DNA of 64,000 nt, taken from assembly GCF_988242995.1 (NCBI RefSeq), contig NZ_OZ547043.1; one strand, 5' to 3'. The notes below the pieces were generated by a model. That model did no database searches. It had not been told where the DNA came from and saw only the letters and a program-made list of their open reading frames with translations. Positions within the stretch are counted from its first letter, which is position 1. Each line of letters opens with the position of its first letter. This document shows, one piece after another, positions 4,250-8,769 of the stretch. The position numbers were made by a program, and so were the translations under genes.

Positions 4250-4700
4250 TAACTACACTCGATGTATTTAGAATAAAAGACAATACGAATCGCACTTTAT
4301 CAATTTTCACTTAAAGTATGAACTGGATATCTTTATTCATAAGAACTATTCATCAACAGCGTATAGAGGCGATTATGTAAAACCACTCATTAGCCTCAAA
4401 ACAAAGACAAATTTCCAGATTTATTACTTAATCAATGAATAACAAGCTTAAAAAATACACTGTTATTCTAAAGAAAAAATTAACAGGCATTAATTAATAT
4501 TAAAAAAATAATATGTTAAAATTTCTTAACGGTTTAAGGATTATACAAATAACACTTTGATTAAATTTTATTTTTTGTATCGATAATTGTGAACTTGTCA
4601 TATATGGAGAGCTATTTTGAACATGAGGTGTTACGTGGATATGTTGCTTAATACGAGTACTGCTAATATAAAAACTTGAGAAAGAGATAACGGGTTATAT
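4250..4700 (-). promoter_or_regulatory. AT-rich tract between the two CRISPR loci; positionally the leader of the degenerate array
   Basis: Strongly AT-rich non-coding stretch on the same side of the repeats as the leader of the main array. Confidence 0.35.
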
Positions 4701-4702
4701 GG

Positions 4703-5219
4703 TGGTTTATTCCCGCTGGTGCGGGGAACTCATCAGTGATATCCAACATTGCGGAGCTAAACGCGGTTTATCCCCGCTGGCGCGGGGAACTCAATTAGCC
4801 CGCCTCGCGCGGGTTTTTTTGTGCCGGTTTATCCCCGCTGGCGCGGGGAACTCTTTACTTATCTGCAAATATTTTTTGTCAGCTGCGGTTTATCCCCGCT
4901 GGCGCGGGGAACTCACGAACGCGGCACACCAGGGCGTCTCATCGTCCGGTTTATCCCCGCTGGCGCGGGGAACTCGAACACGACAGGAGTGATAAATGTA
5001 CGCACATCGGTTTATCCCCGCTGGCGCGGGGAACTCGGCTGATAGTGCTTCTGATTATTCGGCGCAAGCGGTTTATCCCCGCTGGCGCGGGGAACTCTAG
5101 GACCCAATATAAAACCGACTGGTTATTTTCGGTTTATCCCCGCTGGCGCGGGGAACTCTTTCAGTCTGGAACACAACGGCGTTAAATAACCGGTTTATCC
5201 CCGCTGGCGCGGGGAACTC
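4703..5219 (-). CRISPR. Type I-E CRISPR array, 9 repeats of 29 bp and 8 spacers of 32 bp; terminal repeat at 4703-4731 is degenerate
   Basis: Repeats start at 4703, 4764, 4825, 4886, 4947, 5008, 5069, 5130, 5191 with an exact 61-bp period; minus-strand repeat is GAGTTCCCCGCGCCAGCGGGGATAAACCG, the canonical E. coli I-E repeat. Confidence 0.95.
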
Positions 5220-5420
5220 ACTAAACATAACCTATTATTAATTATTGATTTTTTAAGTCAGTCACAATCTACCAACTTAACAGAAACACACAAACAACAC
5301 ATCCATTATGTTAAAGAGCACTTAATTCATTGATTGAAAAGCCAAATATTTAAAGTAATTCTATACCGACTAAAATCCACCAAACTCCGACGTAATAATT
5401 TTCACTCCAACGAAAAATTA
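5220..5420 (-). promoter_or_regulatory. CRISPR leader (AT-rich, adjacent to the newest repeat)
   Basis: AT-rich sequence abutting the intact repeat at 5191-5219, opposite the degenerate end; typical leader position. Extent is approximate. Confidence 0.55.
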
Positions 5421-5558
5421 ACGCCACAGAATTTGTAGATAATGACAATGATTAGTCCGGAATGGGCAAAATGGATGAGTTTTCAGAGGCGACAAAAAAT
5501 ATAAATGAGTGGAAGTCTTTACAGGTTCCACCCATTTATAACGCTTATAAATGTTTAA

Positions 5559-6230
5559 TCAGGCAATATTTAAATATTTATGTGTTTGCATCGACAAACG
5601 CCAGTTGCGCGCAATGCACGTATCGATACATAAACGAGTAGCATCTTCCTTTTGGCTAATCGGCTGCAGCGCAATGACTCGCGGTTTATCATCGGTCAGT
5701 GTTGCCAGTAGTTCATCCAGTGCTTCAATATCACGCACGCGTCCCACTGGATGCTTGATTTCGTTGGCTCGCTCCAGTGCCTGTGACAACACTTCATAGC
5801 CGCCGCGCATGTTCAGCTTTGGCGATACGGTAACCCAGGTATTCGGTGTGCAGCGTACTTCATGAGTACCACTGGTTTCGATCTGGCAGCTAAAACCGTT
5901 CTTTTCGAGCAGGTCAGTCAGTGGCAGCAAATCATGAATGCAAGGCTCACCACCCGTAATCACCACATGCCGCGCGGTGTATCCCTGGCGACCAATGACA
6001 GCCAGCAAGTCTTCACTGCTCGCCGCCCCCCACTTATCACTCTCTTTGGTCTTCGCCAGAATGCTGAAAAGGGAGACTTCCCGATCCTCAAGCTTTTCCC
6101 AGGTGTGTTTGGTGTCGCACCAGGCACAGCCAACCGGGCATCCCTGTAAACGAATAAAAATGGCGGGGACGCCGGTAAAGTAACCCTCACCTTGCAGGGT
6201 CTGGAACATCTCGTTAATCGGGTACTGCAT
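5559..6230 (-). CDS. queE: 7-carboxy-7-deazaguanine synthase (radical SAM, queuosine biosynthesis)
   Basis: 223-aa ORF with CxxxCxxC-type cluster motif region (LQGCPVGCAWCDTKH). Confidence 0.9.
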   Translation of the reverse strand: MQYPINEMFQTLQGEGYFTGVPAIFIRLQGCPVGCAWCDTKHTWEKLEDREVSLFSILAKTKESDKWGAASSEDLLAVIGRQGYTARHVVITGGEPCIHDLLPLTDLLEKNGFSCQIETSGTHEVRCTPNTWVTVSPKLNMRGGYEVLSQALERANEIKHPVGRVRDIEALDELLATLTDDKPRVIALQPISQKEDATRLCIDTCIARNWRLSMQTHKYLNIA

Positions 6231-6523
6231 AGCATTCTCTGTGAAGTGGATAATTGTTAATTATTGCAGATCCTGCCGCAACAATCATGTCTTATTAACA
6301 TTCTGTTACAGGCAGGTTTAAAGAAAAATGAGAAACAGATCGTTAATAATAAAAGGGAGTAACGTATTATGTCAGAAATAAATAAAGCAAATGGATTTAA
6401 TCATGTCAAAAACATTCACCAAAATTATACTTATTTTTTCTGTGTTCGTTTTTAATTATAACGAATCTCAAATTACCGATGTCGCCGTCAATTTATTTAT
6501 CCAGCTTTAATGGGACATTTATA

Positions 6524-7396
6524 ATGCGCTATTTCATACTAATATTCACATTCGTGAGTTCCTTTGTTGCAGCCCAACCAACTATTATCCCACAATTACA
6601 GCAACAAGTTACGGATCTTACGAGTAGCTTAAACTCACAAGAAAAGAAAGAACTGACGCGGAAGTTAGAATCTATTTTCAATAATACCCAAGTACAAATT
6701 GCTGTATTAATTATTCCCACAACCAAAGACGAGACAATTGAACAATATGCTACAAGGGTTTTTAACAATTGGCGTTTAGGAGATGCCAAACGCAATGATG
6801 GGATACTGATCATTGTTGCCTGGTCGGATCGTACTGTCCGCATCCAGGTAGGTTATGGGCTGGAAGAAAAGGTAACCGATGCTCTGGCTGGAGATATCAT
6901 CCGTAGCAACATGATACCCGCATTTAAACAACAAAAATTAGCTAAGGGATTAGAGTTAGCTATAATCGCTTTGAATAACCAACTCACTTCACAACACCAA
7001 TATTCGGCTAATCCTTCAGAAAGTGAATCAGCGTCTTCCAGCGATCATTACTACTTTGCTATTTTTTGGGTATTTGCAGTGATGTTCTTCCCTTTCTGGT
7101 TTTTTCATCAAGGCAGTAATTTTTGTCGCGCATGTAAAAGCAGTGTCTGTATTTCAGCAATCTATCTTTTAGATTTATTCCTGTTCTCCGATAAAACTTT
7201 TTCCATTGCTGTATTTTTCTTCTTTTTTACTTTCACCACCATTATGGTCTTTACCTGTTTATGTGTACTTCAGAAAAAAGCATCTGGTAGAAGTTATCAT
7301 TCAGACAACAGCGGTTCCGGTGGCGGCTCAAGTGGCGGCGGATTTAGCGGCGGGGGCGGTTCTTCTGGCGGTGGCGGCGCGTCCGGTCGCTGGTAA
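6524..7396 (+). CDS. ygcG: TPM-domain membrane protein with Gly/Ser-rich C-terminal tail
   Basis: ORF track 6479..7396; start moved to Met of [13 protein letters not shown] (signal-like); C-terminus is [28 protein letters not shown]. Confidence 0.8.
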
Positions 7397-7404
7397 CTCA
7401 ACCA

Positions 7405-7436
7405 TAAAAAATGCCAGCCCGAAGGCTGGCATTTTT
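7405..7436. terminator. Bidirectional intrinsic terminator between convergent ygcG and eno
   Basis: aaaaatgccagcc-cgaa-ggctggcattttt: 13-bp stem flanked by A-run and T-run on both strands. Confidence 0.75.
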
Positions 7437-7455
7437 AAATCAGATAAAGTCAGAC

Positions 7456-8769
<1,314 letters not shown>

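Follow-up and report, generated by a model that had tools for sequence, protein, structure and literature searches.

The window analysed here, a 64,000-nucleotide stretch of DNA, belongs to Escherichia coli and carries, in this order, a CRISPR array, queE on the minus strand, two short overlapping open reading frames (ORF1 and ORF2), ygcG and, again on the minus strand, eno. The array lies beyond queE, at about 4600–5219, where a direct_repeat is annotated in an identical strain, and repeats of the type "...VYPRWRGEL..." appear in the ORF translations. The coordinates of the features around the two ORFs are collected in Table 1. Both frames were found as an earlier note had drawn them, with the ATG of ORF1 (6369–6371) placed 9 nt downstream of an AAGGGAG motif and a second ATG, at 6403, opening a hydrophobic peptide of 35 amino acids; the distance from the stop of ORF2 to the ygcG ATG is 13 nt, one less than the 14 nt given there. 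The frame of ORF2 is open over 6391–6510, and the longest ORF in it, starting from an ATG at 6391, has 39 amino acids (MDLIMSK...). As 58 ORFs of at least 20 amino acids fall wholly or partly within the surrounding 4 kb, ORFs of such length are common by chance, and what goes beyond chance here is the strength of the Shine-Dalgarno sequence (SD) of ATG 6369, together with the alignment of the interval to the annotated yqcG gene. The predicted pairing of this SD with the 3' end of the 16S rRNA amounts to −7.9 kcal/mol, a value that 28 of the 2,076 ATGs of the window attain (1.35%, that is the top 1.4%) and that exceeds the one obtained for eno (−6.2 kcal/mol). The corresponding values are −3.1 kcal/mol for ATG 6403 and −3.9 kcal/mol for ygcG, whose SD is thus weak. 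For ATG 6403, pairing reaches −5.1 kcal/mol in most alleles with the same run of five As (A5) and −5.4 kcal/mol for lemA; the sequence upstream of this start is AAATGGA in the window, a minority allele found in 37 genomes, and AAAGGGA in most A5 alleles. The ORF1 product is not hydrophobic (GRAVY −0.46), and that of ORF2 has a hydrophobic core of 11 residues.

Table 1. Features of the queE-ygcG region, in positions of the window
Feature	Position	Strand	Remarks
queE	5559..6230	-	Divergent; its 300-bp upstream segment (6231-6530) spans the whole yqcG locus
AT-rich divergent haplotype block	6322..6763	.	Holds yqcG and the first ~80 ygcG codons
Shine-Dalgarno of the first ATG (AAGGGAG)	6353..6359	+	Same in K-12; long (lemA) haplotypes without it
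yqcG locus, A5 split allele	6369..6510	+	Frameshifted pseudogene in RefSeq
ORF1, 28 aa	6369..6455	+	YqcG codons 1-14, then 14 out-of-frame codons
ORF2, 35 aa, hydrophobic	6403..6510	+	Starts at the old lemA start codon
Relic of lemA codons 1-30	6403..6492	+	Lipoprotein signal-peptide region, lipobox lost
A5 run	6408..6412	+	One base longer than the K-12 A4 run; separates the frames
Deletion junction and tail	6493..6523	+	Last 5 ORF2 codons, stop, 13-nt spacer to ygcG
ygcG, TPM-domain protein, 290 aa	6524..7396	+	PF04536, E=6e-36; ortholog of TPM3 in the long haplotype

Judged by its position and its alignment, the segment 6369–6510 is the known E. coli gene yqcG in the A5 allelic form, and not a pair of new genes. 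In the annotations of strain MEW and of the K-12-type strain KLY, yqcG occupies the same place, between the divergent queE and the co-directional ygcG. The window and the K-12-type sequence are identical in 96% of 191 aligned columns, flanks included, and the SD AAGGGAG, the ATG and the TAA of yqcG are in register between them. The K-12-type gene is 141 nt long and encodes a 46-amino-acid product, MSEENKENGFNHVKTFTKIIFIFSVLVFNDNEYKITDAAVNLFIQI, while the locus has 142 nt here; the only length difference is GTCAAAAAC in the window versus GTCAAAAC in K-12. This single extra A, which makes a run of five As out of one of four (A4), splits yqcG into the two frames of ORF1 and ORF2. As a result the window has no uninterrupted 46-codon frame, only ORFs of 28 and 35 (or 39) amino acids, and ORF2 corresponds to YqcG codons 14–46, the last 33 codons of the gene, read from an internal ATG. 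The conceptual product obtained after correction of the frame differs from K-12 YqcG at 9 amino acids. Compared with K-12 YqcG, the locus is therefore alike in position, SD, start, stop and hydrophobic core, but its extra A breaks the 46-codon frame into the 28- and 35-amino-acid ORFs. The suggestion that these are independent genes that fell below an annotation size cut-off did not hold, as ORF1 holds the N-terminal and ORF2 the C-terminal part of yqcG. The proposal of a small membrane protein fared better on one side: the gene at this locus is known to encode a small protein with a hydrophobic core, although neither ORF is a new gene in its own right.

The locus is thus already on record, yqcG having been catalogued since 2008 and the A5 allele being flagged in RefSeq. 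YqcG was first reported in K-12 by Hemm et al. (2008), with its product detected, according to the citation of that work in PMC5821084. In strain MEW, whose sequence is 100% identical, the RefSeq/PGAP annotation of 6369–6510 (L001, 1770–1911) is a "hypothetical protein, frameshifted" pseudogene, and the "frameshifted" label is also carried by four other A5 strains. The RefSeq product name of the gene is "cell envelope stress response protein YqcG" (WP_001288228.1). The link to envelope stress, which comes from this product name in RefSeq and UniRef, is known for K-12 only. The exact ORF1 sequence had no match in the protein collection searched; the exact 35-amino-acid sequence of ORF2 occurs on 609 contigs in public databases, UniRef included, where it is deposited as a YqcG variant, under the name "Small protein involved in the cell envelope stress response" in some sources. 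The 39-amino-acid form of this frame has likewise been deposited. Searches of Pfam and NCBIfam returned no family for YqcG, ORF1 or ORF2.

To place the A5 allele among E. coli strains, 5,426 complete genomes were surveyed with allele-specific probes whose 28-nt megablast seeds all had to span the A-run. The short A5 form of the window was present in 1,162 of the 5,426 genomes (about 21%) and the short A4 form of K-12 in 2,723. A long form of the locus, carrying lemA and TPM genes and counted by means of the segment deleted from the other two, accounted for 1,455 of the 5,426 genomes (27%). The genomes with A5 make up a clade that shares many linked SNPs. A homopolymer error in the sequencing or assembly of the window genome has a negligible probability: a one-base difference in an A-run is the typical error of this kind, yet the presence of A5 in 1,162 complete genomes together with clade-specific linked SNPs refutes it. 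Both frames (ORF1 with 28 amino acids, ORF2 with 35) were kept in all six distinct A5 alleles sampled, and nine of the ten different short-haplotype alleles examined kept the strong SD with its ATG, the exception being AAAGGAAG in M160133 and AJ5. Exceptions to the split state exist. On the background of the A5 clade we found in-frame forms of 46 and 47 amino acids (P0050, P0085), the 47-amino-acid one with a compensating indel, which suggests that the indel state changed more than once, or was recombined, or that some of these sequences are assembly errors. Other discordant forms are rare and comprise a K-12-like allele split at a T-run as well as mosaics, and in some alleles (P0085, P0159) further indels lie in homopolymers elsewhere. 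Phase variation of the A-run was considered and appears unlikely, since the run has only 4–5 nt and its length shows tight linkage to SNPs specific to each clade.

Some strains show other lesions in the neighbourhood. In O103 ML775 (L006) and SMN152SH1 (L013), ygcG is a pseudogene, by an internal stop and a frameshift, and the 46-codon yqcG ORF is intact; in SMN152SH1 two indels that compensate each other give the hydrophobic core a new sequence (KIPTKLYLFF) but leave the length at 46 codons. IS1 insertions break the queE-ygcG locus in some strains, in both short and long forms (H12, H104).

The origin of yqcG emerged from the comparison with the long form. Between queE and eno, E. coli shows a structural polymorphism with three states, namely the long form of the approximately 1,455 genomes and the two short forms; the long form consists of lemA and three tandem TPM/YgcG paralogs and has truncated sub-forms (L008, 539–2947; L016; L018). 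In its full form, represented by the long locus L008, by O157:H7 and by Nissle 1917, the gene order is queE, lemA, TPM1, TPM2, TPM3 and eno, and the lemA product is a 200-amino-acid protein with a LemA domain (PF04011, E=1.5e-48 in L008). In O157:H7 EC4115, the PGAP start of lemA (L016, 802–1422) lies 18 nt further upstream and gives 206 amino acids versus 200. By blastn, window positions 6200–6472 match L008 336–608 (80%, E=2e-65) and positions 6522–7460 match L008 2951–3889 (87%), the latter segment also matching TPM3 of Nissle 1917 (EcN); L008 609–2950, about 2.3 kb, is missing from the window. It follows from this mapping that ygcG is the ortholog of TPM3. The short haplotype thus lacks everything from about codon 30 of lemA to the beginning of TPM3. 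The upstream sequences of TPM2 and TPM3 in L008 (2030–2050 and 2935–2955) contain an identical stretch of 18 nt, TCCGGCCGTTGGTGATCG, and both starts lie a few nt from the stop of the preceding gene, an arrangement that fits tandem duplication and a tight coupling of translation within the operon.

ATG 6403 lines up with the start codon of lemA in four of five long haplotypes; the fifth, O157:H7, has ACG in this place. Positions 6403–6492 can be aligned ungapped with lemA codons 1–30 of four long haplotypes with 53–54 identical nucleotides out of 90 (59–60%); shuffled sequences gave a mean of 26 identities (sd 4, max 42), so that the match lies about 6.8 sd above them. At the protein level, BLASTP aligned YqcG with LemA at E=4e-4, TFTKIIFIFSVLVFNDNEYKITDAAVN pairing with TFIVIIFIFNLSGCGYNDIQTYDEQVN. 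The LemA segment encoded by codons 1–30 reads as a lipoprotein signal peptide with the lipobox LSGC, of which the relic keeps the hydrophobic core, the cysteine and the lipobox being lost. These alignments identify yqcG as the leftover of a deletion of about 2.3 kb that removed most of lemA. The LemA domain itself (residues ~32–193, about 150 residues) found no Pfam match in YqcG or ORF2, and as only signal-peptide codons survive, neither is a member of the LemA family. Compared with the LemA proteins of O157:H7, Nissle 1917 and a15 (PF04011), ORF2 shares the start codon, the signal region and the position relative to queE, but the domain is wholly missing, LSGC is lost and Pfam gives no match. 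Upstream of this relic, the ATG of ORF1 also exists in the long haplotypes, where it is followed by TTT TAA and opens a mini-ORF of 2–6 codons in the 5' UTR of lemA, with AATGATG or AATGAAG in the place of the SD AAGGGAG of the short forms. For the other end of the locus, 6493–6523, we found no convincing match in the 2.3 kb deleted relative to L008, the best local score being reached by 8 of 300 shuffles; it has a weak resemblance to the 3' end of TPM2.

The short and long forms differ over a sharply delimited block of 27–39% GC (6322–6763), in which they diverge by 20–47% between near-identical flanks. The window is identical to the a15-type long locus (L003) up to about 6321; relative to L008 and EcN, identity is 52–67% over 6524–6703, 77–80% over 6704–6763 and at least 90% after 6764. 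The sharpness of these boundaries suggests an old or imported haplotype. Because of the 20–47% divergence within the block, the deletion must have happened long ago or in another donor lineage. A profile search with YqcG variants retrieved 158 relatives, all from E. coli or Shigella, at most 77 amino acids long and with no Pfam domain; it yielded neither a full-length LemA with a closer N-terminus nor a donor. A scan of genome contigs with YgcG for an outgroup species or donor returned only one E. coli locus and one 413-nt contig. The latter (L009, NZ_RAWK01000597.1), of low coverage and from a Corallococcus aberystwythensis assembly, encodes an E. coli YgcG with 94% identity and has almost certainly entered that assembly as an E. 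coli contaminant.

The long haplotypes also inform on the direction of the one-base change. We compared the variants of a15, SCPM-O-B-8794, O157:H7 EC4115, strain 3045 and Nissle: all five have CATG, six nucleotides and ACATTCA, which is the A5 length, and the gap occurs only in the A4 clade. As the A5 spacing is common to all five long variants, parsimony makes the split form ancestral and the 46-amino-acid ORF of K-12 a derived fusion; the comparison is one within E. coli, between two very divergent haplotypes. The split A5 form is thus most likely the ancestral one, and K-12 YqcG would have arisen by a 1-nt deletion that fused ORF1 to ORF2. The in-frame 46- and 47-amino-acid forms on the A5 background weaken this argument, insofar as it assumes a single event. 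The opposite polarity, in which a working 46-amino-acid yqcG was hit by the insertion of one A and survives in the window as a dead pseudogene, is what the PGAP "frameshifted" annotation implies. It would agree with the weak SD of ORF2 in the window allele and with the fact that the K-12 46-amino-acid ORF is the form with experimental support (Hemm et al. 2008, as cited in PMC5821084). We nevertheless regard such a recent loss of function as unlikely, because the A5 spacing is common to all five long-haplotype outgroups, a clade of 1,162 genomes, marked by many linked SNPs, is fixed for A5, and both ORFs are open in six out of six distinct A5 alleles sampled.

On this polarity, the three forms of the locus could be read as the stepwise birth of a small-protein gene that persists as a living polymorphism, with the window in the state preceding the fusion, a scenario for which we consider the chances evenly balanced. 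The deletion of 2.3 kb would have left the lemA start and its signal-peptide codons as a 35-codon ORF abutting ygcG. In the old lemA 5' UTR, the start of the mini-ORF would then have come under a strong SD and, its stops having disappeared, would have opened an overlapping ORF of 28 codons, and the loss of one A in the clade that includes K-12 would finally have fused ORF1 and ORF2 into the 46-amino-acid YqcG. If this is true, the "frameshifted pseudogene" annotation of more than 1,100 RefSeq genomes reverses the actual polarity, and in A5 strains the place of YqcG is taken by two different peptides or by a single one. Which peptides they make can be inferred from the initiation signals. Ribosomes would load efficiently at 6369, where the ribosome-binding site is that of K-12 yqcG, whose product was detected, and would produce a 28-amino-acid peptide ending at 6455. 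The signal-peptide-like ORF2 would probably be made poorly in the window strain, as its SD is weakened (AAATGGA).

Selection on these peptides was assessed by pN/pS (Nei-Gojobori). Over the 32 shared codons of yqcG, pN/pS was 2.0 between the A5 and A4 clades and 0.76 within each clade, values that rest on few substitutions (some 8 differences in 96 nt); for ygcG, codons 1–58 gave 0.37 between the clades. In the 13 N-terminal codons of yqcG every difference is non-synonymous. Within the limits of these small counts, no purifying selection on the yqcG peptide was detected by pN/pS, and the many frameshift variants agree with this result. Since neither peptide is under detectable constraint, a function of the locus, if any, is likelier to be exerted in cis than through peptide activity. 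Such a residual cis role could concern the ribosome traffic toward the weakly SD-equipped ygcG start, or the upstream region of queE, which is bound by H-NS and PhoP. Taken together, we propose with good confidence that the locus is an A5 allele of yqcG and a relic of lemA, that its split state is likely ancestral, and that its role is likelier in cis than a specific peptide activity.

A leader peptide for ygcG, as put forward in the earlier note, or an upstream ORF acting by attenuation or by coupling across the 13-nt stop-to-start gap, would be one way for the locus to act on its neighbour. The 13-nt spacing hints at a possible translational coupling of ORF2 and ygcG: a gap of the same length separates lemA from TPM1 in the a15-type long locus (L003), enterobacterial intergenic small ORFs often end near a downstream start (PMC11188072), and the ygcG SD, at −3.9 kcal/mol, is weak. 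The arrangement thus resembles a coupled upstream ORF in its near stop and weak downstream SD, the spacing of 13 nt fitting only loosely. The strongly initiated ORF1, however, stops 69 nt upstream of ygcG, so that coupling would rest on the weakly initiated ORF2. As for attenuation, the segment 6150–6650 holds no terminator-like site, local folding energies range from −0.6 to −3.7 kcal/mol, and without a terminator-like or alternative structure between the ORFs and ygcG this mechanism is unsupported. Conserved regulatory codons are lacking as well, the peptide being variable (pN/pS 0.76–2.0) with multiple frameshift variants, and its sequence is not conserved. We therefore consider control of ygcG by a leader or upstream ORF quite improbable. 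A search of Rfam over 5200–7600 returned nothing at the yqcG locus; it gave two sub-threshold sRNA matches near eno, to STnc370 (29 bits versus a gathering threshold of 54) and STnc430, at 7400–7498 on the minus strand in the ygcG-eno gap and eno leader, which are probably chance or weak relatives. No stop interrupts the ygcG frame from 6401 onward, and initiation at an in-frame ATG at 6479 would lengthen the protein to 305 amino acids; the PGAP start at 6524 is the beginning of a typical signal peptide.

Recoding at the A-run could in principle restore full-length YqcG in A5 strains, either by programmed +1 frameshifting or by transcriptional slippage. The Lys-tRNA on AAA (6408–6410) can indeed re-pair one base further on, which would yield the ...HVK-TFTK... 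of K-12. Against this, the next codon, AAC, is common and neither a stop nor rare, and we found no stimulator, with neither an SD-like element 3 nt upstream nor a downstream structure. Five As are too few for efficient slippage of the RNA polymerase, and the homopolymer indels of other alleles fit drift rather than a maintained recoding site. Such recoding is thus very improbable. A −1 frameshift into the ygcG frame, open from 6401, was rejected as well, because C-AAA-AAC is not an X-XXY-YYZ heptamer.

The remaining alternative is that the ORFs are incidental and that this DNA matters as the upstream regulatory region of queE, which we hold possible rather than probable and which is compatible with the main explanation. 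In K-12, phosphorylated PhoP binds within the 300 bp upstream of queE, which correspond to window positions 6231–6530, and deletion of yqcG in an mgrB mutant raises queE transcription (PMC4974570). The queE-yqcG spacer has also been described as carrying H-NS and constitutive promoters in both directions (PMC3946193). To these reports of PhoP-P binding, H-NS and divergent promoters (PMC4974570, PMC3946193) can be added a promoter-like site directed toward queE on the minus strand (6375–6346) and the lack of visible selection on the peptide. On the other side, the DNA is not specially conserved, as the divergence of yqcG between the clades is 8.5% versus 4–4.5% in the neighbouring spacer and the 5' end of ygcG. 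A purely DNA-level role would also leave unexplained why the SD and ATG are kept in nine of ten short alleles, and the deletion phenotype in K-12 may stem from the replacement cassette. Two PhoP-box-like sites, at 6304–6320 on the plus strand and at 6398–6414 on the minus strand, lie in the segment bound by PhoP-P, each with 2 mismatches to KGTTTA-N5-KGTTTA; the latter spans the A-run, so that the A5/A4 difference alters its half-site spacing. This pattern is too noisy to be of use, with 188 matches in the window versus 130 expected at up to 3 mismatches. As the region is the upstream DNA of queE, with its PhoP-P binding, H-NS and promoters, a cis role for the relic is favoured: we thus favour the reading of yqcG as a relic of lemA whose residual role, if any, would be in cis.

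A survey of Enterobacteriaceae has described intergenic small ORFs that are AT-rich and end beside the downstream gene (PMC11188072). Like these, yqcG is AT-rich (27% GC), hydrophobic, restricted to E. coli and Shigella and fast-evolving, with its stop near the next start. Unlike them, it did not arise entirely de novo: the 5' end of an older gene supplied two thirds of its coding sequence, and only its N-terminal 13–14 codons derive from formerly untranslated sequence.

Neither the origin of yqcG as a lemA relic nor the derived state of the K-12 form was found in the literature searched, and we consider the two inferences modest, testable side results. About 21% of complete E. coli genomes are labelled frameshifted relative to K-12 at this locus, though comparison with the lemA strains indicates that it is K-12 that is derived. 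As the A5 and long loci differ from that of K-12, results obtained on K-12 YqcG cannot be transferred to A5 strains or to the 27% of genomes with lemA. In K-12, YqcG is a small protein on record as translated, with a sequence derived from the signal peptide of a deleted gene and from former 5' UTR, and it evolves under no detectable constraint, a caution that a small protein that is detected need not have a function at the level of the peptide. The long locus and the A5 and A4 forms offer a tractable natural series for studies of how small-protein genes arise.
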